Below, piece by piece: positions 20,134 through 42,714 of a stretch of DNA of 50,376 nucleotides; the first letter of the stretch is position 1, and every line of letters begins with the position of its first letter. The DNA is from Bdellovibrionales bacterium. Lineage in GTDB: Bacteria > Bdellovibrionota > Bdellovibrionia > Bdellovibrionales > JAMPXM01. The stretch spans positions 1-50,376 of the forward strand of contig JAYSYF010000076.1 of NCBI GenBank assembly GCA_043716655.1, in the 5' to 3' direction. A program made the position numbers and the translations under genes. Below the pieces are notes generated by a model. The model worked only from the letters and a program-made list of their open reading frames with translations. It was not told where the DNA came from and did not search any database.

Positions 20134-20534
20134 ATGGCTTTGACTGCTGAAGCATTCTCTATGGGGTCTAAAGTGCCACTGATTCTAGAAGTTTTAACTC
20201 TCGGTTTAGTCCTCTCCGTCGATTCGTTTTCTGCAGCGGTCGCCATGGGCAGCAAGCGATTTCGTACCAAGGAAATGCTAGCGTTTGCTTTTGCCTCTGG
20301 TGGCGGCGAAGCGCTTGCAACCCTTGTTGGTTTCTTCGCAGGTTCCAAAATCATTTCTTTGATTTCCGAGTACGATCATTGGTTCGCCTTTACGCTCTTA
20401 CTCGGTATCTCCCTGCATATGGCTTACGAGGGTCTTCAGGGCCTCCTGGGAAATCTTCTCCACGATTGCCGGTCTTTATGCTCATCGCAGCCGCGGTTCT
20501 CGGCTTTATGGCCGTTCAGATGTTGAAGATCTAA
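20134..20534 (+). pseudogene. mntP: mntP (DUF204 Mn efflux) remnant with internal deletion and frameshift
   Basis: The first ~105 aa fit MntP (LGLVLSVDSFSAAVAMG...EYDHWFAFTLLLGISLHMAYEGL). The frame then runs into non-membrane sequence. The expected C-terminal helix (PVFMLIAAAVLGFMAVQMLKI*) is readable only in another frame ending at 20534, and the second DUF204 repeat is missing. Confidence 0.55.
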
Positions 20535-22297: not shown

Positions 22298-23460
22298 TCT
22301 TAGGAAACGTCGTCATCACTCTATTCTTAAGCGTGGCTCCAGCGCAGCAGCAGCAGCAGTCGGTGCATGCCCCTGCTCAGCCGACGGCGCCTCAACCACC
22401 CAGCAAACCAGCTTTGGTTACCGCTACAAAAAAGCCGATCGCCGATGAGGCTCGAGTAACAGTGAAGGTACCTCAGTCGGAGCAAGGAAAAATCGGGTTG
22501 AAGACGGCAAAAGCCGAAAGTTCAAAGCTCAATTTCACAATACGTACTGTTGGTTCTATATCAGCAGATCAAGGGCGACAAGCTCATGTGCACACAAGGC
22601 TTAACGGATGGATCGAGCGAATCTTTGTCGATGCCATTGGCAAACCAGTAAAGAAGGGTGAAGTCCTTTTCGAGCTATACAGTCCCGACTTAGTTTCCAC
22701 CCAGGAAGAATATCTTGCGGCCCGAAACGGAAGCGTAACCGGCAAAGAGATCGCCGCGGCGGCACTCGAGCGCTTGCGTGGATGGAGTGTTCCTGAATCT
22801 GAGATTCGTCGCTTGAAATCTTCTGGCAAAATGAAAAGAACGATTTCTTTTGAATCACCAGTGACGGGTTTCGTGGTGAATAAAACTGCGATTCAAGGGA
22901 TGTACATTACTCCGGACATGGAGCTCTATCATATAGCCGATCTCGCACGAGTCTGGATTGTTGTTACACTTTATGAGTCTGATATTAACTCGATTAAAAC
23001 CGGCGACACTGCGGTCATTAAGCTTCCCTACGACGAGTCGCGAACCTTTCAGGCTCCGATTTCATATATTTATCCCGAACTAGATGTTGAGACGCGCACC
23101 TCGAAGGCGCGGATCGAACTTGATAATAAGACGCAGGCCTTGAAGCCAGGGATGTTTGTGAATGTCGAAATTGCAAAAAGTCTAGGTGAAGCAATCACCG
23201 TTCCTGATGATGCCGTGATCGATACCGGAATTCGAAAATTAGTATTCCTGAAAAAATCGGACACCGAATTTGAACCACGAGAAATCAAAGTGGGGCCGCG
23301 GGTTGAAGGCCGCGTAGCTGTTTTGTCCGGACTCTCAGTAGGAACCGAAGTCGTCGTTAGTGCGCACTTCCTTCTCGATGCAGAAAGCAAAGTACAGGCG
23401 GCTCTGCAGAAGGGTTCCGCGACGCAACCTGGGCACGAGTCACATGGGAAGAAAAAATGA
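22294..23460 (+). CDS. cusB: RND periplasmic adaptor (CusB-like membrane-fusion protein)
   Basis: GTGA overlap with the upstream stop. N-terminal anchor, then RQAHVHTRLNGWIERIFVDAIGKPVKKGEVLFELYSPDL (lipoyl/barrel-sandwich motif), and VWIVVTLYESD and PGMFVNVEI beta-barrel motifs. Confidence 0.85.
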   Translation: MILGNVVITLFLSVAPAQQQQQSVHAPAQPTAPQPPSKPALVTATKKPIADEARVTVKVPQSEQGKIGLKTAKAESSKLNFTIRTVGSISADQGRQAHVHTRLNGWIERIFVDAIGKPVKKGEVLFELYSPDLVSTQEEYLAARNGSVTGKEIAAAALERLRGWSVPESEIRRLKSSGKMKRTISFESPVTGFVVNKTAIQGMYITPDMELYHIADLARVWIVVTLYESDINSIKTGDTAVIKLPYDESRTFQAPISYIYPELDVETRTSKARIELDNKTQALKPGMFVNVEIAKSLGEAITVPDDAVIDTGIRKLVFLKKSDTEFEPREIKVGPRVEGRVAVLSGLSVGTEVVVSAHFLLDAESKVQAALQKGSATQPGHESHGKKK

Positions 23461-26400
23461 TCGGCGCGATCATAACCTATTGCAGTCGAAACTCTCGACT
23501 CACGATCGCGTTAGCTCTAGCTCTTGCCCTTTGGGGTGGGTACTGCCTCAACAAAATGCGGATCGACGCAATCCCCGATCTCTCTGACACTCAAGTCATC
23601 ATCTTTACCGAGTGGATGGGGCGAAGCCCAGAGCTCGTCGAAGAACAAGTCACGTACCCACTCGTTACGTCAATGCTTGCATCGCCCAACGTTTCATTAG
23701 TTCGCGGCCAATCAATGTTCGGAATGTCTTTTGTGTATGTCGTCTTCGAGGACGGCACGGATTTATATTGGGCAAGATCTCGAGTTCTTGAATCTTTATC
23801 CAAGTTGTCGGGAAGTTTACCTCAAGGCATCAGTCCCTCGATTGGACCCGATGCCTCTGGCGTTGGCTGGGTCTATCAGTATGCTCTGGTTGATCCATCG
23901 GGTAAGCTTGGCCTTCAGCAAATCCGCACTTTTCAAGATTGGTATTTGAAGTACTGGCTTTCGTCGGTTCCAGGAGTTGCGGAAGTCGCATCGATTGGTG
24001 GATTTGAAAAGCAATACCAAGTGGAGATTGATCCAAACAAGCTTTCGGCACTTAAAATTCCAATCGAAAGAGTCATCGCGGCAATTCGAGAGAGTAACCG
24101 AGATGTAGGAGGAAGAACGCTCGAGATTAGCGAACGAGAATTTTATGTTCGTGGCCGCGGTTATATAAAAAGTCCTCAAGACCTCGAAGATGTCACGATT
24201 ACCACGGCCGGAGGCGGAGTTCCGATACGGATTTCTGATATTGGACGTGTGACAATTGGACCTCAAATACGAAGAGGTGTTACGGACTTCAACGGGGACG
24301 GCGATACCGTCGGCGGCGTAGTCGTTATGCGACAAGGGGCTGATGTCTCCAATACGATCGCTGCGGTTAAAAAGAAAATCGAGGAAGTTCAGCGTGCATT
24401 TCCGGCCGGGCTTGAAATTCGACCGGTCTACGATCGGTCAGGACTCATCAAAGAAGCTGTTTCTACACTTCGAAATAATATTGTCGAGGAAATGATCTTG
24501 GTCACGCTGGTTATCCTCGTTTTTCTTTTTCACGTGCGGAGCGCACTCGTCGTGGCTATCACGATGCCGCTCGCCATCCTGATCTCGCTCATCCCCATGT
24601 ATTACTTCAAGATCAGCCTAAACATCATGAGTATGGGCGGCATCATTTTGGCTATCGGAGATATCGTCGACGGCATCGTTATCTTCATCGAAAATAGCCA
24701 TAAGAAAATTTCGGAGTTTCCGTCACGCCCACGCAACGAACTGATTATCGAGGCCTGCAAAGAAATGGGACCGTCGATTTTTAGTGCGCTGCTGATCATC
24801 GCCGTATCTTTCCTTCCAATTTTCGCTCTCCAAGCCCAAGAAGGAAAACTCTTTCACCCGCTCGCCTACACGAAAACATTTGCGATGTTGGCGGCAGCAC
24901 TGGTGACGATTACCGTGACCGCTCCGTTGATAATTCTGTTCGTCAAAGGCCGAATCCGGTCTGAAACTGAGAATCCAGTCAATCGTCTACTTGCTAAGAT
25001 CTATGAACCGATCTTGAGGTTTAGTCTTCGTCGGCGAAAACTTGTTCTCGCACTTCTTGCCGCAGTCGTCGTTCTCACGGGCGCTGCATTCACGAGATTG
25101 GGTTCTGAGTTCATGCCACCGCTTTGGGAAGGCGACCTTCTGTATATGCCCATTACGGTGCCAGGAATGTCGATAACTGCCGCCGCAGACTTGGTGCAAC
25201 GGCAGGGAAAAGCCATCCGCTCGATTCCAGAAGTTGAAAGCGTATTCGGAAAAGCCGGAAGATATGAAACCCCTACTGATGCGGCACCGCTTTCGATGTT
25301 TGAATATACGGTACGCTTAAAGCCTCGAGATCAGTGGCGAGAAGGTCTTGATGAAGAGCGTCTCCTCAAGGAACTCGACACCGCTGTCGCTGTTCCAGGA
25401 ATCAACCGAGCGTGGACGAAACCGATTCGGGGGCGGATCGATATGCTTTCAACGGGTATTCGTACGCCGGTCGGAATTAAAGTTTTTGCGCCCACCCTGC
25501 CCGCTATCGAAAAAATCGGACTCGAGCTCGAAGCAGCACTTGTTAATGTCCCCGGTACTCGAAGCGTGTACGCCGAACGTCTGGGCGGCGGCTCGTATCT
25601 AGATTTCGATCCTGATCGAAAGTCACTGCAAAGATACGGACTTAATGTCGGTGATGCTCTCAACGTCATAGAGACGGCGATTGGCGGAATGGAAGTGAGT
25701 CAGACCGTTGAGGGTCGTGAGCGCTACACGATCAATGTGCGCTACCCGAGAGAGTTGCGAGATACGATTGAAAAAGTCGGACGTATCCTTGTTGCGACGT
25801 CGACCGGTGCACAAGTACCATTGAGCCAGCTTGGAAAACTTTCGACGCAGTCTGGAGCACCGATGATCTTCAACGAAAATGGTTCGCTCGTGGGTTACGT
25901 TTACATCGACCTAGAGGGCCGTGATCCTGGAAGCTACGTTAAAGATGCTAAAGAAGCCGTAGCAAAGGCAGTAAGTCTTCCGCAGGGATCTTACATAAAG
26001 TGGACTGGGCAATACGAGAATTTGGCTCGCATGCAAGAGCGGATGAAGATCATCCTTCCGTTAACATTAGTCCTCATATTCGCGTTTCTATATTTTGGCG
26101 TTCGGTCGCTCTCGAAAACGATCATGATCATGGTCTCTGTGCCGCTATCTCTCATCGGCGGAATTCTTTTGATGTGGACTCTTGGGTACAACACGAGTGT
26201 TGCTGTATGGGCAGGCGCGATTGCTCTCATTGGTGTCGCAGTAGAAACAGCAGCGATCATGATTGTCTTTCTTGATCGCGCTTGGAAGTACAGGGCTGAA
26301 AGCAACAAGCTCAATACAGGATCAGATTTCATTGAGGCCACAATAAGTGGCGCGCAAGGAAGTCTTCGACCGGTCCTCATGGCTGTATCGATGAACATAT

Positions 26401-26576
26401 TTGGTCTAATGCCTGTGATGTTGGCTACAGGAATCGGTGCGGACGTCATGAAGCGAATAACGTCGCCGATGTTTGGCGGTTTGATCACGCTAGCGGTTTT
26501 AACACTCATTATTTTACCGATTATTTACATGATGAATGAAACCCGTCATAACCACCGTTCGAGGAAAATATCATGA
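23457..26576 (+). CDS. cusA: HME-RND Cu(I)/Ag(I) efflux pump CusA
   Basis: 1039 aa, 12-TM RND. The stretch EFMPPLWEGDLLYMPITVPGMSI...APLSMFEY...RGRIDMLSTGIRTPVGIKV aligns with E. coli CusA, including all three Met of the M573/M623/M672 cluster. ATGA overlap with cusB. Confidence 0.95.
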   Translation: MIGAIITYCSRNSRLTIALALALALWGGYCLNKMRIDAIPDLSDTQVIIFTEWMGRSPELVEEQVTYPLVTSMLASPNVSLVRGQSMFGMSFVYVVFEDGTDLYWARSRVLESLSKLSGSLPQGISPSIGPDASGVGWVYQYALVDPSGKLGLQQIRTFQDWYLKYWLSSVPGVAEVASIGGFEKQYQVEIDPNKLSALKIPIERVIAAIRESNRDVGGRTLEISEREFYVRGRGYIKSPQDLEDVTITTAGGGVPIRISDIGRVTIGPQIRRGVTDFNGDGDTVGGVVVMRQGADVSNTIAAVKKKIEEVQRAFPAGLEIRPVYDRSGLIKEAVSTLRNNIVEEMILVTLVILVFLFHVRSALVVAITMPLAILISLIPMYYFKISLNIMSMGGIILAIGDIVDGIVIFIENSHKKISEFPSRPRNELIIEACKEMGPSIFSALLIIAVSFLPIFALQAQEGKLFHPLAYTKTFAMLAAALVTITVTAPLIILFVKGRIRSETENPVNRLLAKIYEPILRFSLRRRKLVLALLAAVVVLTGAAFTRLGSEFMPPLWEGDLLYMPITVPGMSITAAADLVQRQGKAIRSIPEVESVFGKAGRYETPTDAAPLSMFEYTVRLKPRDQWREGLDEERLLKELDTAVAVPGINRAWTKPIRGRIDMLSTGIRTPVGIKVFAPTLPAIEKIGLELEAALVNVPGTRSVYAERLGGGSYLDFDPDRKSLQRYGLNVGDALNVIETAIGGMEVSQTVEGRERYTINVRYPRELRDTIEKVGRILVATSTGAQVPLSQLGKLSTQSGAPMIFNENGSLVGYVYIDLEGRDPGSYVKDAKEAVAKAVSLPQGSYIKWTGQYENLARMQERMKIILPLTLVLIFAFLYFGVRSLSKTIMIMVSVPLSLIGGILLMWTLGYNTSVAVWAGAIALIGVAVETAAIMIVFLDRAWKYRAESNKLNTGSDFIEATISGAQGSLRPVLMAVSMNIFGLMPVMLATGIGADVMKRITSPMFGGLITLAVLTLIILPIIYMMNETRHNHRSRKIS

Positions 26577-31704: not shown

Positions 31705-32268
31705 TCATTCTCTGGCGAGATTCAAATTCATCCGCGTTTTGATTGTAATCTCGTCAGCAACTTTAATCCCCATATATGTAGGCACCGCGATCTGATAGTC
31801 GGACACCAGAACTTTGAATTCTGTCGAGACGCTGGGCGTATCTTTGTTAGTGTCGACTTCCGCAGTTCCCTTCACCGGCCTCTCGACACCGTGTAGACTT
31901 AATTTTCCCTGAAACGGAACATTCGAATAAACTTTCTTTGTTTTTAAAAAGTCGGCTGGCAGGTCGATGTTCTCAATTTCAATCCAAGCCTCTGCATACT
32001 TCGCAGTCTCCAAATACTTTTCTTTCATGTGCTGATCGCGAAGCGAGACGCCAGTTGTGAAAGCATCCATTTTCACACCAAAGCGCCCCTTCACTTTATT
32101 ATCTTCGAGCTCGAAGTTTCCGCTGAGCTTTCCGCCGGTTCCTTTGATTTTTAAAAAGCTCGGCTTCCCCACAGCGTGAAACTCAACCTCCGACGTTTGC
32201 TTCGAAAGATCGACTTGCTGTACGGCTCCCCAGGACATCGGTAACAATAACAATAGTATTTTCAGCAT
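31705..32268 (-). CDS. YceI-family periplasmic protein
   Basis: Start at ATG 32268 gives signal MLKILLLLLPMSWGA. SEVEFHAVGKPSFLKIKGTGGKLSG..., GVSLRDQHMKEKYLE and GKLSLHGVERPV are typical YceI motifs. Confidence 0.85.
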   Translation of the reverse strand: MLKILLLLLPMSWGAVQQVDLSKQTSEVEFHAVGKPSFLKIKGTGGKLSGNFELEDNKVKGRFGVKMDAFTTGVSLRDQHMKEKYLETAKYAEAWIEIENIDLPADFLKTKKVYSNVPFQGKLSLHGVERPVKGTAEVDTNKDTPSVSTEFKVLVSDYQIAVPTYMGIKVADEITIKTRMNLNLARE

Positions 32269-32276
32269 TTCGCCCC

Positions 32277-33452
32277 TTACTTTACGATGAGTTGTCCGGT
32301 TGAAAAGCCGCTGCTTCCGTGAAATCCACAAGTGAAAGAAAAACTGCCAGCGCTTTCAAGCTGAACCACTTGCGAGGTCTTCGATCCACGATCGGCCATC
32401 AAATCGAGATCCAGTTCGCCAGAATCGAATTTAAACATTTTGTCTGTTGCGGTAAGGACGATTTCGATCGTCTGACCTTCTTTCGCTTCGACAACGAGAG
32501 GCGAGCAAGTGCCGTCGGCTTGACCTGCGATATCGATGGTCACGTCTGGAATGCGAACAAGATTGATCACGCGCTCTTTCTGCCACTGCTTCGCAATGTC
32601 GAACGCTGTTTGACCTTTTCTATTTTTAAGTCGTCGATCCGGTCGAGCCAGCAAAATATCTTTTACTGTCCAGTCGTCTCCGTAAGACGTTGCCCACATG
32701 AGCGGCGTCATTCCCTGGCTATCTTGAAAATCAAAATTAGCTTCGGCGGCGATGAACGAGTCATAGACGTCACGCACTTCATGCTTCGCGGCTTTCAAAA
32801 GAGCAGTTTCTTTTTTCATCGGATCCACGATGTCGACAAATGCGCCCGCCGAAATGAGCTTGTCCACGATTTGTGGGAGGCTCGTTAGCGAGTGAGGCGC
32901 TGGCGTCATGTTGCCCCCGCAATTTCCATCGATAGCGTAAAGCAGCGGCGTGCAACCGTATTTATCCGTGAAGTTCACATCTGCGCCACATCCCAATTGA
33001 TAATTCACGGCTTGCAACGATTGATAGAAACGACCTTCACGAAGAACTGTAATCAACTGTTCGCTCGGGTTTTTTCCGCATGACGGTGCGGTCGGAATGG
33101 TGCCGTTGATTTTGCACTCGAGCTCGGTGCCCGCAAAATAAAGCCCATGCGTGAAAGCGTTCCTCTTCACACTCCCCTGCTCAATTAAGAAATCAAGGTG
33201 TGACATTCCACTTGAGTCCGAATACCGCAAAGTATTTGGCGCCGGATACGAAACTCTGGTCAGCTTCAAACCCTGGGTCACAGAACCACTGGGACTAATA
33301 AACCGAATATCACCTTTGTTTTTTTGCGGCAGAATCGTAAGTACGACTCGAGTCTTCTGACTCGAGTCGGTGTAGCCCGTGCACGAAACGGTTTCAGCCT
33401 TCGCGCTGACTGTGGCGGTCAAAATCGCTCCCAAAATCAAAACTGGTTTCAT
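32277..33452 (-). CDS. exported ankyrin-repeat protein with C-terminal cupredoxin-like domain
   Basis: Signal MKPVLILGAILTATVSAKA. Ankyrin repeats (GADVNFTDKYGCTPLLYAI, GAFVDIVDPMKKETALLKAAKH, ANFDFQDSQGMTPLMWAT, NRKGQTAFDIAKQ). The last ~85 aa follow the cupredoxin pattern (VVEAKEGQTIEIVLTATD...AGSFSFTCGFHGSSGFSTGQLIVK). Confidence 0.8.
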   Translation of the reverse strand: MKPVLILGAILTATVSAKAETVSCTGYTDSSQKTRVVLTILPQKNKGDIRFISPSGSVTQGLKLTRVSYPAPNTLRYSDSSGMSHLDFLIEQGSVKRNAFTHGLYFAGTELECKINGTIPTAPSCGKNPSEQLITVLREGRFYQSLQAVNYQLGCGADVNFTDKYGCTPLLYAIDGNCGGNMTPAPHSLTSLPQIVDKLISAGAFVDIVDPMKKETALLKAAKHEVRDVYDSFIAAEANFDFQDSQGMTPLMWATSYGDDWTVKDILLARPDRRLKNRKGQTAFDIAKQWQKERVINLVRIPDVTIDIAGQADGTCSPLVVEAKEGQTIEIVLTATDKMFKFDSGELDLDLMADRGSKTSQVVQLESAGSFSFTCGFHGSSGFSTGQLIVK

Positions 33453-33469
33453 GTTCCCCCCGGCTACGG

Positions 33470-34150
33470 CTAATTCGCGCCGTTACTTATCCACTCTCTA
33501 ATAATTCTAATTTGCTCCGGCGCGAGCGCCGAATAACCTTCTTCAGCTAACGGCATTCGTTTATGGTCGGTCCGCTCAAGTGCGATCAATAATCCCGATT
33601 CGTCGACGTTTACGAGATCGATTAACATAAGTGGCGAATCCAGCAGCGACTGACGATCAAGCAAAATCTGTTTTCCAGTTCCCGTCGGATGATGGCAGGT
33701 CAGGCAGACCGGTTCGAAAATGTGTTGTCGAATCGATTCATAAGTTGCAACTAGCGGTTCGACCATAGGCGGTGGCTTTGGGCTGTTGAGTGGTGCGCCA
33801 GCGCGCAGCCAGTTGCCTAGCCATCTTCGTTCGTCATCTCGAAGCTGCCCACGCTTCGGCATCGTTTGCTCGACAAAAACGGCTTTGTCGATCGTAGCCA
33901 GTTGCGAAAACACGCTCTCGTAAGTTTCGAGATTCACCTTCTCACCGGCGCGATGACAGCTCACACATCTTGGCTGAAGAACTCGCGAGTTGATGAAACC
34001 GTAGTTCATCATGCTCGCCTTTTCTTCTGGCAACAGCTCACCGTAACTTCGAGCGCTTGCGTCCCCGGTGCCTTTCAACACCGAGTAATTGCAGGAACTC
34101 AAGGTGCCAATGACCGCCACCGAAATGAGAGTGCGAACTAAGAAATGCAC
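33470..34150 (-). CDS. dihaem c-type cytochrome lipoprotein
   Basis: Lipobox GTLSSC and two CxxCH motifs (CVSCH, CLTCH), each in a repeat resembling the planctomycete-type cytochrome c domain (VLQPRCVSCHR...LETYE / IFEPVCLTCHH). Confidence 0.8.
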   Translation of the reverse strand: MHFLVRTLISVAVIGTLSSCNYSVLKGTGDASARSYGELLPEEKASMMNYGFINSRVLQPRCVSCHRAGEKVNLETYESVFSQLATIDKAVFVEQTMPKRGQLRDDERRWLGNWLRAGAPLNSPKPPPMVEPLVATYESIRQHIFEPVCLTCHHPTGTGKQILLDRQSLLDSPLMLIDLVNVDESGLLIALERTDHKRMPLAEEGYSALAPEQIRIIREWISNGAN

Positions 34151-34158
34151 CCTAATTC

Positions 34159-34731
34159 TTAAGGTACAATGGCTGTGGAATTTAGAGACCCGTCCAGATT
34201 GACGTACACATTAAGCGTCTGAGTCTGGGCCGAAGAACGAACCTGAAGAACTGCGACGTCCTTACCGCCTAGCGAACCTTTGACAAGATCGAGGCTTGAG
34301 AAATCCTTGAAGTAAGGAGCAATGGTAGCGTCCGTGCCATTGTCCAAGACAAAGTGCATTCCGTTTTCGACAAGTTCTCCAGCATTCTTTGGCGCCCAAC
34401 CCACGTCAGGTCCGGCGACTCCGCCCGTTGAAGCTTTGAAAGATAGCGGTTTGCCATCCTTATCGAATTGCAACTCGAGTTGAATTGCTTGACCTGAAGT
34501 TGGTTGAGTCTGAGACGAGACCGATTTGAACGCCACCGGCGCCGGACCCGAGACTTCGGTGACCTCGATTTTTGACAGTCGCTTCTGAAACGAACCATCG
34601 ATCTTCCCGAGCGTTACGAGCCGATCGATTCGATGTGCTGAGAGTTCACCTATCTTCGCTTTCGAGACCGACTGCGCCATCGCAACTTGTGAACCTAAAA
34701 GTACCGACGCGAACAACAGTGCAAATTTCAT
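34159..34731 (-). CDS. exported hypothetical protein
   Basis: Signal MKFALLFASVLLGSQVAMAQ. 24 nt downstream of csoR. No recognisable motif. Confidence 0.65.
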   Translation of the reverse strand: MKFALLFASVLLGSQVAMAQSVSKAKIGELSAHRIDRLVTLGKIDGSFQKRLSKIEVTEVSGPAPVAFKSVSSQTQPTSGQAIQLELQFDKDGKPLSFKASTGGVAGPDVGWAPKNAGELVENGMHFVLDNGTDATIAPYFKDFSSLDLVKGSLGGKDVAVLQVRSSAQTQTLNVYVNLDGSLNSTAIVP

Positions 34732-34755: not shown

Positions 34756-35094
34756 TTAGAAAACTAATTTAATGATCTCTTGGATTTTCTCTTCGGACTT
34801 GAACGCATCCTTGCTTGCTAAGGCCGTACTGACACAGCCTCGTAAATGCGCCTTTAAGACTTCTGCTTCCGTCGCGCGAAGTCCTGCCGATGCCGCTTTC
34901 AGCTGCGCGATGATGTCAGGGCAGTATCTTCGGTCAAGAATCATTCGCTCGATCCCCTCGATTTGCCCTTTAACTCGGTTAAGCCTCTTAATGTGTTCCG
35001 AATGGTCCGGATGTTCATGTGCAACGGAACTGAGTGCGTTCGCTCTCGGTTGCACTTTTTTTACTTTTGCTCGCGCCGTCTGCTTTTCTAACAT
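34756..35094 (-). CDS. csoR: CsoR-family Cu(I)-sensing repressor
   Basis: DUF156 core RLNRVKGQIEGIERMI, with ligand pattern Cys (RRYCPDI) plus His-x3-Cys (KAHLRGC), which is the CsoR x-C-H-C fingerprint. His-rich N-tail HEHPDHSEH. Confidence 0.9.
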   Translation of the reverse strand: MLEKQTARAKVKKVQPRANALSSVAHEHPDHSEHIKRLNRVKGQIEGIERMILDRRYCPDIIAQLKAASAGLRATEAEVLKAHLRGCVSTALASKDAFKSEEKIQEIIKLVF

Positions 35095-35128: not shown

Positions 35129-35166
35129 TTGACACATACCCTACCGGGGCATAGTTTAGCCGTCAA
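35129..35166. promoter_or_regulatory. overlapping divergent promoters sharing a CsoR-type operator
   Basis: Plus strand: TTGACA (35129..35134), 17 nt, TAGTTT (35152..35157). Minus strand: TTGACG (35166..35161), 17 nt, TAGGGT (35143..35138). Between them lies ATACCCTACCGGGGCATA (35136..35153), which resembles the ATACCC..GGGGTAT CsoR boxes I remember from Bacillus and Listeria. Confidence 0.6.
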
Positions 35167-35187
35167 CATACTTTAAAAAGGGTGACG

Positions 35188-35949
35188 ATGAAACATTTTG
35201 GAATTCTTCTGGGACTTGGGGTCATTGCTTTATGGGGACAGCCATCGTCTGCGCATGGGACACAGGAAAGTCGTGTCGAGATCGAGCCGGTCGCGACATC
35301 GACCGTCGCCGGTACCACGCAGTATGCGTTTCAACTCGTGGATACGAGCAAAAGCAGTCTCATTGGCGACGTGGAACTTAACATCTCACACGAAATGAAA
35401 CTTCATTTGATTGTTTATGATCCGTCGCTCGGCGAATTCCAGCACGTGCATCCCGAATTCGACGGAACCAACTGGATGGTGACACTGCAATTTGCGGTCA
35501 ATGGAAATTACTGGGTTTGGGCGCAGGGGGAGCTTGCGGTCGACGGCGAAAAATTTTCTTCTTCAACAAGACTTGATGTCACGAATGGAGCCGCACAGCT
35601 GCCCGCGCCACCGGTGCTCGGTGACCGGCGATTGGGAAGCCTCGGAGTTTCAGCCGTTGATATCGGCAAAACAAAAATCACGGCAGGCAAGATGGTAATG
35701 CTGGACTTAAAGATGTCGCGAACAGACGGCACGTCTCCGCAACTTGCACCATACTTGGGAGCATTTGCACACATCATCGCGACAACCTCAGACGGTGACG
35801 AACTCATTCACGTTCATCCGATGGGGACCACCGCTACTGCCGGAATGATCCACGCGACATTCCCAGCAGCCGGTGACTATCGCCTGTGGGTCCAATATAT
35901 AGATGGCGGCAACCTGATCACGATACCCTTATCGGTCAAAGTTAATTGA
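35188..35949 (+). CDS. exported protein with two tandem beta-rich domains, each carrying an HVHP motif
   Basis: ATG 35188 (AAGGG upstream) gives signal MKHFGILLGLGVIALWGQPSSAHG. Repeat 1 is ...KLHLIVYDPSLGEFQHVHPEF...NGNYWVWAQ. Repeat 2 is ...AFAHIIATTSDGDELIHVHPMG...AGDYRLWVQY. Confidence 0.7.
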   Translation: MKHFGILLGLGVIALWGQPSSAHGTQESRVEIEPVATSTVAGTTQYAFQLVDTSKSSLIGDVELNISHEMKLHLIVYDPSLGEFQHVHPEFDGTNWMVTLQFAVNGNYWVWAQGELAVDGEKFSSSTRLDVTNGAAQLPAPPVLGDRRLGSLGVSAVDIGKTKITAGKMVMLDLKMSRTDGTSPQLAPYLGAFAHIIATTSDGDELIHVHPMGTTATAGMIHATFPAAGDYRLWVQYIDGGNLITIPLSVKVN

Positions 35950-36073
35950 TCCCAAACTCAGGAACGCGACACGCTTCATCTCGATACACCGGTTCCGCTA
36001 GTGAATCGCTCAAAGAAATGTCGCGAAGGATTAGATTGAAATCGTGAAGATTAGATGGTGTCATAATAGAACG

Positions 36074-36445
36074 ATGCGTGTGCTGATATACTTTTTTTGC
36101 ATTTCGATTTTTGCTCTAAGCGGGCTAATGCCCGCATCGGCACTCGCACATGCGGATAGCGCCTCACACGTCGCTATCATTGTCGTAGTAACTCACTCCC
36201 ATGAGCACGTCCACGAAGCACACCATCACACAGATTCGAAACACTCTGCACCAGCGGAAGGACATCATTCCGACCAACACTCGCATGAGCATTTTGTTTC
36301 TTGCGCTCATCCAATTTGGCTTGAGGCCTCGCGTTTTGAAACAGCAGCAATCGAGTTTATCAACCCGCACTCGTTTATTTTTAAACGTTCAGTGCCGGCG
36401 ACTCGAGCCCTAGGCTCAATTTTCCGCCCTCCGATCCACGCTTAG
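36074..36445 (+). CDS. small His-rich exported/membrane protein
   Basis: ATG 36074 gives signal MRVLIYFFCISIFALSGLMPASALA. The mature part has about 20 His (THSHEHVHEAHHHTDSKHS...GHHSDQHSHEH). It lies immediately upstream of the RND gene. Confidence 0.55.
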   Translation: MRVLIYFFCISIFALSGLMPASALAHADSASHVAIIVVVTHSHEHVHEAHHHTDSKHSAPAEGHHSDQHSHEHFVSCAHPIWLEASRFETAAIEFINPHSFIFKRSVPATRALGSIFRPPIHA

Positions 36446-36549
36446 TCCCCTCCTCTAATAAAATTTTTCCCACAAAATCTTTCGTTTTGTAATCATCGGC
36501 CGTTCTACGTGCGTAATCATACGACACGTCGAACGGTCAGGAGAAAACC

Positions 36550-39500
36550 ATGCTGAACGCGCTCATCCGCTTTTCGCTGAAGAAGCGACTCTTAGTCGGT
36601 CTCATTGCACTTGCACTTTGTGTTTACGGAGCATGGCTGCTGCAGAGCCTGCCCGTCGACGTGTTTCCAAATTTGAACCGACCAACAGTCACAGTCCTTA
36701 CGGAAGCGCATGGGCTTGCTCCGGAAGAAGTGGAAACGCTCGTGACCCTTCAGATCGAAACGGTCCTGAACGGAACTCCCGGAGTCTTGCGACTTCGATC
36801 GAGCAGCGGAATCGGCATTTCGATCGTCTACATCGAGTTTGACTGGGGAACCGAAATATTTCGAAATCGACAACTAGTTGCAGAGAGACTTCAGCTTTTG
36901 GAAGGAAGGCTGCCGCCACGGATGCAGCCCGTAATGGGACCGGTCACGTCGATCATGGGAGAAATCCAGTTTGTTGGTGTCACGAGCCCCGACGATAAGA
37001 TTTCACCGATGGAGCTTCGAACACTCGCCGACTGGACGCTTCGCCCACGGTTGATGACAATTCCAGGCATCAGCCAAGTTGTCGTTATGGGCGGCGAAGT
37101 GAAACAATACCAAATTCACATCTCCAACGAAAAGCTTCAGCGAAAAAACGTATCGCTCGAAGACCTCAAAGAAACGCTGGCTAAAATCAGCGAGAATACG
37201 ACCGGCGGTTTCATCGACATCGGAGAAAAGGAATTTTTAATTCGGCCCATCGGTCGGGCGTTAACTCTCGAGGATATCGAAAACTCTCTCGTGGCAATGC
37301 ACTTTGGTAAACCGGTGCTCGTCAAAGATGTCGCCGAAGTTAAGATCGCTGCAAAACCCAAACGCGGCGAAGGTAGCATCAACGGCAAGCACTCAGTCAT
37401 CATGACACTTCAAAAACAACCAAGTGCGAGCACTATTGAGCTTACACGCGCGATCGAACGCGAACTAAAGGCGATGGAAAAGTCTTTGCCAGCAGGAGCG
37501 AAACTCGAAACCGACCTGTTTAAGCAGTCGCATTTTATCGAATCCGCCATTGGCAATGTGGAAGAAGCGCTTCGTGATGGAATCATCATGGTCGCCATCA
37601 TTCTATTTTTATTTCTAATGAACTTCCGAACCACTGGGATCACGCTCGTCGCTATCCCCTTGAGCCTTCTCATCACCGCAATTATTTTCCACATTTTCGG
37701 TATTACGATCAACACGATGACGCTTGGAGGTCTTGCCATCGCCATCGGCGAGTTGGTCGACGACGCGATTGTCGATGTTGAAAACGTTTTTAGACGGCTT
37801 CGCGAGAACCGCACTGCCGGATCGCCGAAAGGAAACTTGCGAGTCATCTATGAAGCTTCGAGCGAGGTTCGAAATTCAATCGTGCTCTCGACGATCATCG
37901 TAGTTCTCGTATTCATTCCGCTTTTCGCTCTAGGCGGAATCGAAGGGCGATTGTTTGTTCCACTCGGCGTGGCGTATATCATCTCGATTCTCGCTTCACT
38001 TTTTGTTTCGCTAACGGTGACCCCCATTCTCTGTTCGTATCTGTTACCGAACTCGAAGGCCGTACACGATCAGAACGATGGCCGACTGGTTCGAGGCCTG
38101 AAGCGCTTCGCAGTGAAAATTCTAGATTGGACACTGCCACGACCGATTTTAATCCTCGGCCTCGCTGCGCTCTTGCTTGCATTGAGTCTTGCGCTCTTAC
38201 CAATGATGGGTCGAAATTTTCTGCCCGATTTTAACGAAGGCACTGCGACGATAGGAATCGCTGCGGCACCAGGCATTTCGCTAGCCGCGTCGGACAAGCT
38301 TGGAATCAAAATCGAAGAGGCTATACTCTCGGTTCCGGAAGTGAAATCCACGGTTCGTCGAACCGGACGCGCCGAAATGGACGAGCACGCAGAAGGAGTC
38401 CACTGGCACGAGGTTGATGTCGATTTCAAACCGGATGGTCGCGATCGTGAAGTCGTCCTTCAAGAGATTCGAGAAAAGATCGAAAAAGTGGGCGACGTTT
38501 CCGTCAACCTCGGTCAACCCATCAGTCATCGTCTGGATCACCTGCTTTCTGGCGTGCGAGCCCAGATCGCAATTAAAATTTTCGGGCCCGACCTCGGCGA
38601 ACTTCGCCGTCTTGGTGGCGAGACTTTCGATGCACTTCAAGGAATCGATGGCGTTGTAGATCTACAGACCGAGCCACTCGTCCTAATTCCGCAATTAAAA
38701 ATTGCGATCGATCGGGAAGGTGGAAGTAAACTCGGAATCCGAAGCGGCAGTCTCGCGGAAGATTTGGAAATTGCCCTCAACGGTGCCACGGTCGCGCAGA
38801 TTCTCGAAAATCAAAGGATGTTCGACGTCACCGTGCGGCTCGACGAAAGCTCTCGCGCGACGCCAGAACGAATTTCGGAAACTCTCGTCAAGTTCCTACC
38901 GACGGCGCAAGCAGTACGGCTGGGGGAGGTTGCGAATGTGTATGAAGGCACTGGGCCAAACATGATCAATCGAGAGGACATGCAACGGAGGATCGTGATT
39001 TCGGCAAACACACACGGTCGCGATTTGGGCAGTGTCGTGGGCGACATTAAAACAGCGCTCGACACGAAAATTAAATTGAGTGAAGGCTACTTCATTAAAC
39101 TTGGTGGGCAATTCGAAAGCCAGCAAGCCGCTTCCAAGCGAATTTTTTGGCTGGGACTGCTTGCAGTGTTGGGAATTTTCTTTGTTCTTTTCGTGCACTT
39201 CAAGTCCACCATTTTGAGTCTTCAGGTCATGATGAACATTCCGCTCGCGCTGATTGGCAGTATCGTCGCGATCTTTATTACAGAGAGAACGCTTTCCGTG
39301 GCGACTCTCGTTGCCTTCATCACCCTCTGCGGAATTTCGACTCGAAACGGAATTTTGTTGATCAGCCACTACCTGCACTTGATGAAGGAAGAAGGCGAAG
39401 AGTTTGACGCGAAGATGGTCATTCGCGGCTCGCTCGAGAGAATGGTGCCTGTGCTTATGACGGCTTCAACGGCAGCGTTAGCACTTGTTCCGCTACTTCT

Positions 39501-39684
39501 GTCCAGAGGCCAGCCTGGCAAAGAGATTCTATATCCTGTCGCAGTCGTAATCGTAGGAGGTCTCGTATCGTCGACGTTACTCGATCTCGTCGTAACGCCG
39601 ACCGTTTTCTTGAGATTTGGTAAGAAGGCCGTTTCAAAGTATTTAAAGGACAGTCCACAACACGAACAAGGAGAATGGAAATGA
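36550..39684 (+). CDS. HME-RND heavy-metal efflux pump (CzcA/CusA superfamily, not the Cu(I) Met-cluster type)
   Basis: 1044 aa, AGGAGA SD, 12-TM RND layout. TM4 motif GGLAIAIGELVDDAIVDVEN. The positions equivalent to the CusA Met triad are not Met (FNEGTATIGIA...). Confidence 0.95.
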   Translation: MLNALIRFSLKKRLLVGLIALALCVYGAWLLQSLPVDVFPNLNRPTVTVLTEAHGLAPEEVETLVTLQIETVLNGTPGVLRLRSSSGIGISIVYIEFDWGTEIFRNRQLVAERLQLLEGRLPPRMQPVMGPVTSIMGEIQFVGVTSPDDKISPMELRTLADWTLRPRLMTIPGISQVVVMGGEVKQYQIHISNEKLQRKNVSLEDLKETLAKISENTTGGFIDIGEKEFLIRPIGRALTLEDIENSLVAMHFGKPVLVKDVAEVKIAAKPKRGEGSINGKHSVIMTLQKQPSASTIELTRAIERELKAMEKSLPAGAKLETDLFKQSHFIESAIGNVEEALRDGIIMVAIILFLFLMNFRTTGITLVAIPLSLLITAIIFHIFGITINTMTLGGLAIAIGELVDDAIVDVENVFRRLRENRTAGSPKGNLRVIYEASSEVRNSIVLSTIIVVLVFIPLFALGGIEGRLFVPLGVAYIISILASLFVSLTVTPILCSYLLPNSKAVHDQNDGRLVRGLKRFAVKILDWTLPRPILILGLAALLLALSLALLPMMGRNFLPDFNEGTATIGIAAAPGISLAASDKLGIKIEEAILSVPEVKSTVRRTGRAEMDEHAEGVHWHEVDVDFKPDGRDREVVLQEIREKIEKVGDVSVNLGQPISHRLDHLLSGVRAQIAIKIFGPDLGELRRLGGETFDALQGIDGVVDLQTEPLVLIPQLKIAIDREGGSKLGIRSGSLAEDLEIALNGATVAQILENQRMFDVTVRLDESSRATPERISETLVKFLPTAQAVRLGEVANVYEGTGPNMINREDMQRRIVISANTHGRDLGSVVGDIKTALDTKIKLSEGYFIKLGGQFESQQAASKRIFWLGLLAVLGIFFVLFVHFKSTILSLQVMMNIPLALIGSIVAIFITERTLSVATLVAFITLCGISTRNGILLISHYLHLMKEEGEEFDAKMVIRGSLERMVPVLMTASTAALALVPLLLSRGQPGKEILYPVAVVIVGGLVSSTLLDLVVTPTVFLRFGKKAVSKYLKDSPQHEQGEWK

Positions 39685-40127
39685 AGAGTCTCATCATGTT
39701 TTTGATATTAGGTATTGCAAGCTTGGCTCAGGCACATGACGAAGGCCATGGACCGAAGCTTGCCGACACCGGAAAGTATGGAGGCCTCGTGTCGGCCGTC
39801 GTTTTGAAAGCCGATGCGACGAAAGGTGCGGCCGCAACGCTTGTCTACAAAGCCGAACTTGTAAGATCAGCGGATGGAACGACGCGTGTTTATCTTTACG
39901 ACACGGCAATGAAGCCGGTCGATTCGAAAGGCTTCGACGCTAAAGGTTCGGCATCGCTTGCCGCAAAGGTAAAGGGCAAGTGGAAGTCAGTCGATTTTCC
40001 CATGGTTCTTAAAGATAAATCGTTTGTCGGCACCATGCCGAAACCAGAAGCGAAACCATATAATATCGACGTCACGTTAAAGCATGACGGCAAAGAGCTA
40101 CTCACGGCGTTCGACAATCTCGACTAA
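39681..40127 (+). CDS. small exported protein between the RND and OMF genes (unknown family)
   Basis: ATG 39681 (AAGGAG 7 nt upstream, ATGA overlap with the RND stop) gives signal MKSLIMFLILGIASLAQA. The mature N-terminus is HDEGHGPK, the protein is beta-rich, and there is no coiled coil. Confidence 0.65.
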   Translation: MKSLIMFLILGIASLAQAHDEGHGPKLADTGKYGGLVSAVVLKADATKGAAATLVYKAELVRSADGTTRVYLYDTAMKPVDSKGFDAKGSASLAAKVKGKWKSVDFPMVLKDKSFVGTMPKPEAKPYNIDVTLKHDGKELLTAFDNLD

Positions 40128-40138
40128 GGAGTTTTAAA

Positions 40139-41407
40139 ATGAAGTCACAGACCGCTCTCATCATCTCGGTTTTGACCGGATTAACTCTGGCGACATCGGT
40201 CGGCGAAGCGCTTTCGATTCGATTCGAAGATCTTCCTCGCCTCGTCACTGAGAAAAATGAAAACGTCAAAGCGTCGGCATTTGCCATGAAAGCACAGTCG
40301 GAACGAACGGGTTTTTTGGCCCGTTCGTTTCTTCCTCAGCTGTCGGCCTCACTGGGGCAGGAGGAATTCAAAACCGGATCGTCACCGTCCGCTCAACAAG
40401 AGTATTGGCGAATTGAAGGTTCACTGAATTTATACCGAGGCGGTCGTGACAAACTTGAAAATCAAATTCGAAACGGACAACGCGAGTTAGCGGGACTCAA
40501 TCACTCGAGCGAAATACAAAGAGAGTTACGGGAAGCCAAGCGAGCGTATTGGCAGGTGCTGGCAATCGCCAAATTGATCGCAGAGCGAAAAGAGGCTCGC
40601 GATAAAAATGAAGCCAATCTCAAGTCTGCACGTCGGCGAGCGGGGGCCGGGATAACAACAACTGCGGACGCCGCGCAGTTCGAACTCCACAAGTTAACGC
40701 TCGAGCGTGATATTAAGAGGTTAGGTCTCGAACACCACCGCATTGTGAACCTGTTGAGCGTCGCGCTCGCTCTGGACGAACACGAGAATATCGAGGTGGT
40801 TGGAGATTTTCCAGCTATAGAAAGCGCGACGCCTGTGAAAACACTGGAAGTCGGGAAGCAGATCGAGGTTCGGAATTACCAAGAGCTTCAACGAGTCGAC
40901 GAACTAAGAGCGTCAAGATTGGCGCGCTGGTTCTTACCAAGACTCGATCTGTACACAAGTTATGGATTGCCGTCGCTAACAGACGAATACGACAGAGCGC
41001 TGCGAAAACAGCAGGAGTGGACCGCAGGAGTTCGAGTCACCATTGATCTCGGCCAAAGCATTGAAGAGCGAAGGGAGGCAGGCGCTCGATCTGCGGATGC
41101 TAGTGCTGCGCAAATGCGGGGCGCGCACAGACTTCGTGAAGTCATCGCCAATGACCACGATTTGCGACAGGACATTGCGGTAACCGCCGATTTGATCAAG
41201 GACTCTGAAAACGCCGTTGCCCAAGCGCAGAAGTTTTTAAAACTCACGGAGGCTGAGTATTCGCGAGGAGCCAAAAATGGACCGGATCTTCTCGAGGCTT
41301 TTCGGACTTACTTCGAGTTTCGCGAGCGTCGAATCGATTACCTTCGCGAATACTTCGAAACGAAGGCGCAACTTGAAAGTTTAGTGGCTGGAGCTGAACC
41401 TTCGTGA
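40139..41407 (+). CDS. outer-membrane efflux factor (TolC family)
   Basis: AAGGAG SD, signal MKSQTALIISVLTGLTLATSVGEA, two helix-rich OEP repeats (e.g. LYRGGRDKLENQIR, AQKFLKLTEAEYSRGAKNGPDLLEA). Confidence 0.85.
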   Translation: MKSQTALIISVLTGLTLATSVGEALSIRFEDLPRLVTEKNENVKASAFAMKAQSERTGFLARSFLPQLSASLGQEEFKTGSSPSAQQEYWRIEGSLNLYRGGRDKLENQIRNGQRELAGLNHSSEIQRELREAKRAYWQVLAIAKLIAERKEARDKNEANLKSARRRAGAGITTTADAAQFELHKLTLERDIKRLGLEHHRIVNLLSVALALDEHENIEVVGDFPAIESATPVKTLEVGKQIEVRNYQELQRVDELRASRLARWFLPRLDLYTSYGLPSLTDEYDRALRKQQEWTAGVRVTIDLGQSIEERREAGARSADASAAQMRGAHRLREVIANDHDLRQDIAVTADLIKDSENAVAQAQKFLKLTEAEYSRGAKNGPDLLEAFRTYFEFRERRIDYLREYFETKAQLESLVAGAEPS

Positions 41408-42714
41408 AAAAGCTTTCCTTAACTTCTCGGATGTTGCTCGGCCGATTGCTCACGCGGTCGGGCGATCAGGCGTGGGACTTTGCGGTTCCGATCGTGCTCT
41501 TGCATTTGATGCCTGGCGAACTTCGCGTGGCCGCCCTCTATTTTTTGCTTATTAGAATTGCGACAGTCATCTTTCTCCCGCGTCTCTCAATGTTGATCGA
41601 TCGCTTCGACCGCATGAAGTCAGTGTCGTTAGGTATCGTTCTTCAACTTGCTGGCGTCGTTGGAGGCTTCGTTAGCGTCGGTTTTCTCCCGACCGGAAAC
41701 GTCGACTATTTACAGTCCATGAACTTCATCATCATGTTCACACTTCTGGTCCTCAGCGGAATCGTAAGTCAGCTTGGTTCAAGCTTTATGGACATTGCGA
41801 TTGCGAATGATCTTGTACCGTCGACTTTCCAAGGAACGGCACTCACAAAATTCAATAGCCGCCTCCGACAAGTGGACCTAGCAACCGAAGTGGGTTCACC
41901 GATCGTCACGGGACTTTTGCTACTCGTATCGACCACTGCCTATCCCCTACTTGGCTTCGCACTTGTTGCTCTTTGGAACGTGCTTTCGTTTTTCCCAGAG
42001 TATTTGATATTAAAATCGGTATTCACAGAAAGAACCGACCTCAAGGAAAAACCAATTCTCTTAGATCCGTCGAAAACAAAACCGATCTTAGTAAAGATGC
42101 GCGACGGATGGCGTTCGTTTTTTCGTCAGCCTATCGCTCCGGTTATGCTTGCGTACGCGGTTCTCTGGCTTTCAGTTTTAAGCCCGCACGGCGTGCTTCT
42201 TACGGCGTTTTTGAAAGACGGCTGGCGTTTGCCGGAATGGTCGATCGGTGTATTTCGCGGACTCGGCGCTGTTTTCGGGCTGATGGCAACGCTGCTCGTA
42301 CCGATTTTAGCAAAACGCATGTCGATTGAAAAATCGAGTCTTGTATTCCTCGCCATTCAATCGGTCAGCCTGATGATAGCACTTGGGTTCTTCTTCGTCG
42401 GCGACACCGTTGGGCAAATCGGTTTTCTGGTGGCTGTCTTGTTCTCGCGGATAGGGCTCTACGGATTTAGTCTTGGAGAGATGCAGATTCGACAAACAGC
42501 GATTCCCACGAATGCGCGCGGAGAAATCAACGGTTTCGCGTCCTCTCTAACTGCACTCGCAACGATCGGGCTATATTCTGCGGGCGTCGGAATACCGTCG
42601 ACTAGCGATTTCAAGTATCTGATTGTTTTGTCAGTGGGTTTTGTCTTGAGTGCACTCGCCGTGTACACCGTGTGGTATCTTAAAAAAACCGATGAACGCG
42701 CTATTTTAAAGTAA
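41404..42714 (+). CDS. ferroportin-like (SLC40/FPN family) MFS divalent-metal exporter
   Basis: GTGA overlap with the OMF stop. About 12 TM helices. The N-terminal RSGDQAWDFAVPIVL matches the ferroportin GDxxWxFAv signature. Size is similar to the characterised Bdellovibrio ferroportin homologue (from memory). Confidence 0.75.
   Translation: MKKLSLTSRMLLGRLLTRSGDQAWDFAVPIVLLHLMPGELRVAALYFLLIRIATVIFLPRLSMLIDRFDRMKSVSLGIVLQLAGVVGGFVSVGFLPTGNVDYLQSMNFIIMFTLLVLSGIVSQLGSSFMDIAIANDLVPSTFQGTALTKFNSRLRQVDLATEVGSPIVTGLLLLVSTTAYPLLGFALVALWNVLSFFPEYLILKSVFTERTDLKEKPILLDPSKTKPILVKMRDGWRSFFRQPIAPVMLAYAVLWLSVLSPHGVLLTAFLKDGWRLPEWSIGVFRGLGAVFGLMATLLVPILAKRMSIEKSSLVFLAIQSVSLMIALGFFFVGDTVGQIGFLVAVLFSRIGLYGFSLGEMQIRQTAIPTNARGEINGFASSLTALATIGLYSAGVGIPSTSDFKYLIVLSVGFVLSALAVYTVWYLKKTDERAILK

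Follow-up and report, generated by a model that had tools for sequence, protein, structure and literature searches.

In the closest described systems, CusCFBA and ZneCAB/CzcCBA, a heavy-metal efflux (HME) pump that belongs to the RND (resistance-nodulation-division) superfamily is encoded together with a TolC-family outer-membrane factor (OMF) along with a periplasmic adaptor protein (PAP), namely CusB, ZneB or CzcB. PAPs are treated as essential, with the hairpin-less BesA given as the extreme case, and every solved RND tripartite pump contains one (PMC4446572, PMC8277102). Here we describe an operon of a Bdellovibrionales bacterium, located on a contig of 50,376 nucleotides (JAYSYF010000076.1, assembly GCA_043716655.1; this whole stretch is referred to below as the window), that encodes a His-rich small protein, an HME-RND pump, a small secreted protein of 148 residues (p148), a TolC-type OMF and a ferroportin homologue (FPN). 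No PAP gene, which would be expected of a canonical tripartite RND system, lies within or beside this operon. The operon resembles CusCFBA and ZneCAB/CzcCBA in combining an HME-RND with a TolC-family OMF, in including a small secreted protein that may handle metal, as CusF does, and in placing the pump beside an inner-membrane exporter that would feed the periplasm. It differs from them in the absence of a CusB/ZneB/CzcB adaptor, in the replacement of the CusA methionine triad by Gly, Trp and His, in a fourth transmembrane segment (TM4) that is neither of the CusA type nor of the DFG-DGA-VEN type, and in the predicted immunoglobulin (Ig)-like sandwich of p148, where CusF has a barrel resembling the oligonucleotide/oligosaccharide-binding (OB) fold.

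Two further systems are relevant for comparison. The CrdA-CrdB-CzcB-CzcA system of Helicobacter pylori likewise combines genes for an OMF and an HME-RND with one for a small secreted CopC-like beta-sandwich metal binder, but it keeps its PAP (CzcB), which has no counterpart here; CrdA shares no sequence similarity with p148 and was crystallised with Ag(I), whereas the N-terminal motif of p148 offers only histidines. The precedent for a reduced adaptor is BesABC of Borrelia, which has been argued to need direct contact between RND and OMF (PMC4446572). BesA retains the lipoyl, beta-barrel and membrane-proximal (MP) domains, whereas no PAP domain was found in the present cassette, and the OMF BesC has lost the TolC-type gate residues (PMC4446572), which the cassette OMF appears to keep. 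Full-text literature searches returned no description of a PAP-less RND-OMF operon and none of a link between a ferroportin homologue and an RND system, Bdellovibrio included. Our preferred interpretation, to which we assign a probability of roughly 55%, is that the operon contains a self-sufficient, horizontally spread four-gene cassette without a PAP, in which p148 would capture periplasmic metal and deliver it to the RND, and the RND and OMF would engage each other directly.

Conservation of a cassette without an adaptor gene

All open reading frames (ORFs) of the operon were found in the order originally predicted (Table 1), and reading of the junction sequences bore out their tight spacing. 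The RND stop and the p148 start overlap in an ATGA at 39681-39684 with GGAGAA upstream, p148 and the OMF gene are separated by an 11-nt gap with GGAG inside, and a GTGA at 41404-41407 links the OMF and FPN genes. The exported protein encoded after the pump is real, its length being 148 residues rather than the 149 first given. The statement that no adaptor-sized ORF exists in this region also stands: between positions 35188 and 42714, neither strand carries a further ORF of more than 160 residues, and what remains are shadow ORFs within known genes. Profile searches of Pfam and NCBIfam, which the original prediction had proposed for its three small exported proteins (p148, the His-rich protein and p255, a secreted protein encoded upstream), gave no HlyD, Biotin_lipoyl, CusF, YtkA or CopC match at E <= 0.1, and none of the three was assigned to HlyD_D23, HlyD_3 or Biotin_lipoyl_2; as a positive control, the CusB-like adaptor encoded elsewhere in the window scored against HlyD_D23 with an E-value of 7e-74.

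One genome from each species was scanned with a p148 profile, which yielded 80 loci, and the addition of metagenomic loci gave a set of 87 loci with a p148 homologue, each examined as a 20-kb stretch with 10-kb flanks around the cassette. The RND, p148 and OMF genes adjoin one another on one strand in 82 of the 87, so that the gene order co-occurs in related genomes, and the missing adaptor noted at first in a single operon proves to be a conserved trait and not an annotation gap or a local loss. The hosts include Bdellovibrionales, Bacteriovoracales, Oligoflexia, Elusimicrobiota, Marinamargulisbacteria, Myxococcota and candidate phyla, and a complete Elusimicrobiota chromosome (L076) is among those with the full triad. 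Identity to the window proteins ranges across the loci from 57 to 97% for the RND, from 40 to 90% for p148 and from 21 to 92% for the OMF, mostly under 35% for the latter. The ATGA overlap between the RND stop and the p148 start recurs in 59/79 loci, and in most others the two genes are at most 20 nt apart. Two loci (L079 and L087) show the order OMF-RND-p148. Even in distant members (L088-L090), where p148 identity falls to 28-31%, the triad is kept with junctions of 1-4 nt.

Upstream of the RND gene, about 52 of 61 loci carry a same-strand ORF of 105-175 residues that has a signal peptide or anchor and a centre rich in His, Asp and Glu and ends in (I/L)(F/L)RPPI(A/S), as does the His-rich protein of the window in similar form (...SIFRPPIHA), and the conserved cassette therefore consists of four genes encoding the His-rich protein, RND, p148 and OMF. 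In one locus (L086:1092-11696) the whole cassette, comprising small protein, RND, p148-like protein and OMF, is duplicated in tandem, and in another (L048:838-11209) a second pair of RND and p148-like genes without its own OMF lies on the opposite strand and converges on the OMF gene of the first cassette. A decayed cassette was identified in L013 (8604-11706): there is no RND upstream, the first 12 codons of p148 are missing, and two ORFs of 152 and 232 residues stand in place of an intact OMF gene; we count this loss of the RND together with truncation of its partners toward functional constraint on the cassette.

No adaptor accompanies the cassette in these loci. When 506 flanking ORFs were searched by phmmer with the CusB-like PAP of the window, the best E-value was 0.14 and no adaptor was recovered, a Pfam scan of 20 immediate same-strand neighbours of at least 200 residues found no HlyD family, and an ad hoc hidden Markov model (HMM) built from four diverse PAPs recovered, among all ORFs of at least 150 residues in the loci, only the PAP of the window and its L017 orthologue. 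Deletion of a PAP gene from the window alone was ruled out, as the related loci examined likewise have no adjoining PAP; relatives with a normal adaptor gene, which would have spoken for such a deletion, were not encountered. At least four phyla share the gene order, the tight junctions and the absence of a PAP. This spread over at least four phyla in unrelated contexts, at an RND identity of at least 57%, implies transfer as a self-sufficient unit and is hard to explain if the pump depended on a host-specific PAP. The genes found beside the cassette in other loci are varied, and include those for CsoR repressors, FPN, a cation diffusion facilitator, CNNM or, in one case (L007), a full copper set of copper oxidase, CopB, Csp and copper ATPase.

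The p148 family, its pump and the channel

The p148 family comprises 499 homologues in a large protein collection, forming 112 clusters at 50% identity, and its members are stand-alone proteins of about 130-190 residues save for short fragments and four long repeat proteins. The latter were considered as possible Rosetta-stone fusions and rejected, since the matches fall in repeats (Big_7, Flg_new) and were judged to be repeat-driven. No Pfam domain was found in p148 or in its distant members (tested at E <= 1), no NCBIfam model matched p148, and a plasmid search for it gave no match. An AlphaFold2 model based on a 23-sequence alignment (pLDDT 85.7) predicts a signal peptide, about 10 disordered residues, an eight-strand beta-sandwich and one short helix. 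Cleavage at the AxA signal-peptide site would leave a mature protein that begins at His1 with H-D-E-G-H-G-P, and mature H1 and H5 (H19 and H23) are at least 90% conserved over 61 diverse members; the C-terminal AFDNLD is strongly conserved as well. We conclude that p148 represents a new family of secreted proteins, co-translated with the RND, with near-invariant N-terminal His1 and His5 and a predicted Ig-like beta-sandwich.

Foldseek comparison of the model with the Protein Data Bank (PDB) gave weak Ig-fold matches (E >= 0.01), including Tp34/HftA and CrdA (9ll4; E 0.037, TM-scores of 0.37/0.47), so that p148 looks like a metal-binding-type Ig-fold protein with weak likeness to CrdA and CopC. 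There was no PAP chain among its top 50 PDB matches, and hhalign against the PAP of the window gave a probability of 0.2%. As the model is a single eight-strand beta-sandwich, it does not show the PAP arrangement of lipoyl, alpha-hairpin, beta-barrel and MP domains, and p148 was ruled out as a degenerate PAP on the combined evidence of Pfam and NCBIfam, predicted fold, Foldseek and hhalign. Nor does it resemble CusF, whose five-strand OB-like barrel and H-M-M-W site contrast with an Ig-like model that has no conserved Met or Trp ligands.

The association between p148 and its pump can be traced in the paralogues. In L086 and L048, each paralogous RND (53-55% identity) has a downstream, overlapping p148-like gene of its own that encodes 132-133 residues (hhalign 97%). 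The RND-p148 pairing thus predates the clade and the two proteins co-diverge, a point in favour of a direct functional partnership. A distant p148 member (143 residues) without an adjoining RND was also observed (L091:7048-8432), where the end of a DUF6607 gene overlaps with it.

The RND itself belongs to the HME-RND family of CusA and CzcA (TIGR00914, 766.6 bits against a cut-off of 701; ACR_tran, E 2.5e-258). It is a 12-TM protein with two large periplasmic loops and is colinear with both CusA (E 4e-140) and the zinc pump ZneA (E 7e-133), its C-terminal half being nearer to ZneA than to CusA. The CusA triad M573/M623/M672 aligns to G569/W619/H664, and these replacements are invariant in 60 aligned RNDs (that of the window and 59 orthologues), so that the periplasmic Met triad of CusA-type Cu(I)/Ag(I) pumps (HME4) is absent. 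TM4 reads AIGELVDDAIVDVEN, with three extra acidic residues, and does not contain the DFG-X3-DGA-X3-VEN signature of CzcA/CnrA-type (HME1/2) pumps (PMC3637150). In its periplasmic part the pump carries the motifs GRAEMDEHAEGVHW(H/S)E and QPISHRLDHLLSG; in the 60 aligned sequences, AEMDEHAEGVHW(S/H)E(I/V)D, QPISHRLDHLLSG and the TM4 motif are (near-)invariant, with position 620 varying between Ser and His. Together with the range of identity given above, these (near-)invariant TM4 and periplasmic His/acidic motifs indicate that the pump is under strong constraint. The original prediction of an RND without a Met triad that probably moves a divalent cation agrees with these features: the replacement of the triad, the conserved motifs and the C-terminal closeness to ZneA favour a borderline or hard divalent cation. 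We infer that the substrate is a divalent metal, with Ni, Co, Zn, Cu(II) and Fe(II) all possible, among which these features cannot discriminate.

The nearest RNDs outside the clade, at 53-56% identity, come from Magnetospirillum, Hymenobacter and Haliscomenobacter plasmids. They are members of this RND subfamily and carry the same signatures (TM4 AIGELVDDAIVDVEN, GRAE.DEHA and QPISHRLDHLLSG, including an identical SHRLDH), but they sit in TolC-PAP-RND operons whose annotated, canonical PAPs were confirmed by Pfam. Since sister RNDs with the same motifs have PAPs, the loss of the adaptor is a trait derived within the clade. The window RND aligns with the Magnetospirillum and Haliscomenobacter sisters with zero indels, so nothing was added to the pump in compensation for the missing adaptor; in the Hymenobacter sister, 9 residues are inserted after position 630 and the C-terminus carries extra sequence. 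Similarity to the PAP-containing sisters is lowest in the docking regions DN and DC (0.44 and 0.36 identity, respectively, vs 0.5-0.74 elsewhere, with approximate domain boundaries), which might hint at a new interface, although docking domains are variable in all RNDs.

The sister operons also carry a secreted beta-sandwich module with a mature N-terminus of the form AH..(E/D)HG, which differs from p148 in being membrane-anchored or fused to the PAP N-terminus. In Hymenobacter it is a 209-residue protein encoded between TolC and PAP (L093:2560-3189), with a signal peptide and the mature N-terminus AHGGEDHG, for which AlphaFold2 predicts an eight-strand sandwich plus a C-terminal TM helix and whose top Foldseek match is CrdA (E 1.5e-3, TM-score 0.67). 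The same module forms an N-terminal extension of about 240 residues in the PAPs of Magnetospirillum and Haliscomenobacter (hhalign 97-99%; L092:3351-4994 and L094:9380-11089), which look like a CrdA-like metal module fused to a PAP. Homology of p148 to this module was considered and rejected, as an hhalign probability of 92.6% fell to 0.9-1.4% once the signal peptides were trimmed; only a parallel architecture is therefore claimed, and neither homology nor descent of p148 from a PAP N-terminus.

The third conserved partner, the OMF, is a TolC-type protein of normal length, encoded 3' of p148 in nearly all loci, with two PF02321 (OEP) repeats (E 1.2e-20) and a plain signal peptide without a lipobox. 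A single-sequence search of the PDB gave no match, and a profile of 25 orthologues matched TolC over its residues 87-405 (E 2e-15), which places it in the TolC family.

Accessory genes and surroundings of the cassette

The His-rich protein, the first gene product of the conserved cassette, has a signal peptide or anchor and a middle region rich in His, Asp and Glu. It resembles CopL distantly, matching CopL_fam (NF033807) over its full length at 25.1 bits (E 2.2e-5) against a cut-off of 40 and DUF2946 at E 2e-3; with its orthologues scoring 17 bits or less, it was not assigned to CopL.

The ferroportin homologue is well supported as such (PF06963, E 2.4e-62, 211 bits against a cut-off of 24.6). 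A two-step route, in which an inner-membrane exporter supplies an RND pump, is the standard model for metal RND systems, and the original prediction read such a route from the coupling of ferroportin to the RND; as FPN directly follows the OMF gene in just 14 of 69 loci, it is better described as an optional inner-membrane add-on to the cassette. The window protein is a clear homologue of BbFPN of Bdellovibrio bacteriovorus (Bd2019; 5aym, E 2.5e-104), which moves Fe2+, Co2+, Mn2+ and Ni2+ in liposomes (PMC4633820). The text of that structure paper contains neither 'RND' nor 'operon' (PMC4633820), whereas in the window the FPN gene overlaps that of the OMF. In one locus (L001:11760-13638), an insertion of the IS200/IS605 type (OrfB/TnpB and Y1 transposase) leaves FPN with about 46 codons, and the gene is intact in the near-identical L002.

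The secreted p255 consists of two tandem repeats of about 100 residues, each with an HVHP motif, and its predicted mature N-terminus starts with His (SSA|HG). No match to it was found in Pfam, NCBIfam or the PDB by sequence. It had been a candidate component of the unit and is instead accessory, with homologues in only two other loci, one close to the cassette (L022) and one immediately downstream of the OMF gene (L028).

The divergent repressor gene encodes a CsoR/RcnR-family protein (PF02583, 84.3 bits against a cut-off of 22.8, E 8e-24) that matches the NCBIfam models RicR (2.9e-16) and RcnR (7.8e-6), both under cut-off, and has a His-rich N-terminal extension and, by eye, a C-H-C ligand pattern. 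CsoR-family genes adjoin the cassette in L003/L004 and L005 as well. Between the repressor gene and p255 lies a GC-rich inverted repeat, TACCCTACCGGGGC, which resembles CsoR operators and is taken as a lead only, a candidate operator; a loose operator pattern occurs twice in the window against 2.65 matches expected, and is thus not rarer than chance. Beside the repressor gene, a run of exported proteins is encoded on the minus strand (31705-34731), and these may be periplasmic copper or redox accessories.

Upstream of the cassette is a separate copper module made up of a P1B-type ATPase, a truncated MntP-like ORF and a canonical OMF-PAP-RND operon, the last at a distance of 10 kb and with a real CusB-like adaptor. 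The RND of this operon is 28% identical to that of the cassette, has Met at all three triad positions and is a genuine CusA type. The window is thus an island of metal resistance in which two RND systems of very different kinds lie together. L017 is the only other locus with a CusB-like operon near the cassette, 3.6 kb downstream.

Table 1. Features of the window discussed in the text, in order of position
Feature	Position	Strand	Basis or remark
P1B-type ATPase with YHS and HMBD domains	17675-20113		
Truncated MntP-like ORF	20134-20526		
Canonical OMF-PAP-RND operon	20873-26576		
CusB-like adaptor of this operon	22294-23460		HlyD_D23
RND of this operon	23457-26576		CusA type
YceI-like protein	31705-32331	-	Exported
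Ankyrin-repeat and cupredoxin protein	32277-33452	-	Exported
Two-CXXCH cytochrome c-like protein	33470-34150	-	Exported
Secreted protein of 190 residues, no family	34159-34731	-	Exported
CsoR/RcnR-family repressor gene	34756..35094	-	PF02583; divergent to operon
GC-rich inverted repeat	35137..35150	+	
p255, secreted, two tandem repeats	35182..35949	+	ORF map
His-rich small protein	36074..36445	+	Longest ORF start at 36044
HME-RND inner-membrane pump, 1044 residues	36550..39684	+	TIGR00914
p148, secreted, 148 residues	39681..40127	+	ORF map; no Pfam or NCBIfam match
TolC-type OMF, 422 residues	40139..41407	+	PF02321
Ferroportin-family exporter of the major facilitator superfamily, 436 residues	41404..42714	+	PF06963

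Additional RND operons without a Pfam-detectable PAP were identified within the same loci (L064, L051, L089, L069, L072, L075 and L091), their RNDs being about 30% identical to that of the cassette. In three cases the RND gene comes immediately after the OMF gene or overlaps it, with neither a PAP nor an intervening gene (L064:1030-5478; L051:13477-18028, minus strand; L089:4290-8635), and the L089 copy has a CzcA-like DFG...DGA TM4. In the remaining operons, of the order OMF-small protein-RND, the small proteins (128-206 residues; L069:13687-14079, L072:14518-14904, and on the minus strand L075:15914-16426 and L091:2371-2991) form one family with the motif GDE(V/I)..G...LR..E and a C-terminal His, some having long His/Glu-rich N-termini. 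They gave an 11.8-bit match to the ad hoc PAP HMM, weakly resembling the C-terminal membrane-proximal part of a PAP, and no PAP match in the PDB or in Pfam; that they may be minimal adaptors is a lead only. It is also plausible that reduced or absent adaptors are common in Bdellovibrionota, Elusimicrobiota and their relatives. As a separate observation, an RPPIS-type small protein heads the OMF-small protein-RND operon of L091, on the other strand from the distant p148 member.

Possible mechanism and competing explanations

In the mechanism that we propose, the RND would export a divalent transition-metal cation out of the periplasm, the metal entering at a His/Asp/Glu site of the periplasmic cleft that takes the place of the CusA Met triad. 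p148 would act as a dedicated partner whose flexible His-rich N-terminus captures the metal and passes it to the pump, in the manner of CusF, the N-terminus of CusB or CrdA. As the cassette comes without a PAP, direct contact between RND and OMF is probable, and p148 might stabilise or gate it. In the window, the CsoR-family repressor would control the operon and the appended ferroportin homologue would feed cytoplasmic metal to the periplasm. A stronger version, in which the RND and a TolC-type channel carry out adaptor-free efflux across the envelope and p148 represents a new coupling class, either as a clamp or gate-opener at the junction or as a soluble shuttle from the pump exit to the channel, is put forward only tentatively.

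Several observations count against the proposed mechanism. The coupling of RND and OMF without a PAP would have no counterpart among the solved RND tripartite pumps, all of which contain one; the capture of metal by p148 is deduced from its sequence, its structural matches are weak, and its apparent link to the CrdA-like module of the sister operons vanishes without the signal peptides. With regard to metal specificity, some contexts are copper-rich (L007) and the ligand pattern of the repressor suits Cu(I) and Ni(II) alike. Finally, the TolC gate residues D153/Y362/R367/D371, which PAP hairpins open, align by eye to conserved D/Y/K/D in the OMF, and a channel that apparently keeps these residues fits a PAP supplied in trans.

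The last point would favour an ordinary tripartite pump, with p148 a mere CusF-like chaperone and the adaptor encoded elsewhere, either by an orphan PAP gene or by the neighbouring operon, as the original prediction had offered as one option. The canonical operons of the window and L017 lie close enough to the cassette to be potential sources, the sister operons contain both PAPs and small CrdA-like proteins, and there is a precedent in AcrD, which borrows AcrA in trans (PMC8446912). PAP-RND pairing is normally specific, however, and the divergent sequence and Met triad of the neighbouring RND, together with the absence of its operon from the 10-kb flanks of all loci but L017, make the borrowing of the CusB-like adaptor unlikely. 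A need for a host PAP would moreover have hindered the self-sufficient transfer implied by the spread of the cassette over at least four phyla, and other RND-OMF operons in the same loci are also devoid of a PAP; we thus consider a PAP in trans rather unlikely.

The original prediction had alternatively suggested that one of the small proteins is a new kind of adaptor or chaperone, and of this the new small periplasmic partner, p148, has held up, while an adaptor role was established for none of the proteins. A role of p148 as a minimal structural adaptor that oligomerises at the RND-OMF junction to seal or open the conduit, rather than mainly carrying metal, would agree with its presence without an adjoining PAP in every locus examined, with the location of its gene between those of RND and OMF and its translational coupling to the former, with the co-diverged p148-like genes of the paralogous RNDs, and with a conservation far better than that of the OMF. 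We nevertheless regard this role as improbable, as a single Ig domain of about 110 residues cannot mimic a four-domain PAP architecture, p148 has neither a membrane anchor nor homology to any PAP domain, and the feature that it conserves best, a His motif in a disordered stretch, is typical of metal capture. From L013, the operon might also be imagined as a relic in decay or without function whose adaptor gene was lost, but all window genes are intact with ribosome-binding sites, and the conservation of the PAP-less layout, of the RND (57-97%) and of its catalytic motifs over more than 80 loci effectively refutes this explanation, which we consider highly improbable.

If the stronger version above holds, a different architecture would replace the three-part RND paradigm in these bacteria. 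A mobile and widely conserved RND-OMF cassette without a PAP would provide a natural test case for the argument between direct docking and tip-to-tip assembly and for the minimal parts that open a TolC-type gate. PAPs are, in addition, pursued as drug targets. New in either case are the p148 family, unannotated so far, a distinct HME-RND subfamily with a putative His/acidic periplasmic site, and the first genomic link of bacterial ferroportin homologues to an outer-membrane efflux route. Should a PAP be supplied in trans, the paradigm would stand, and the new accessory protein and pump subfamily would remain; otherwise, the standard three-part pump model may not fit every case.

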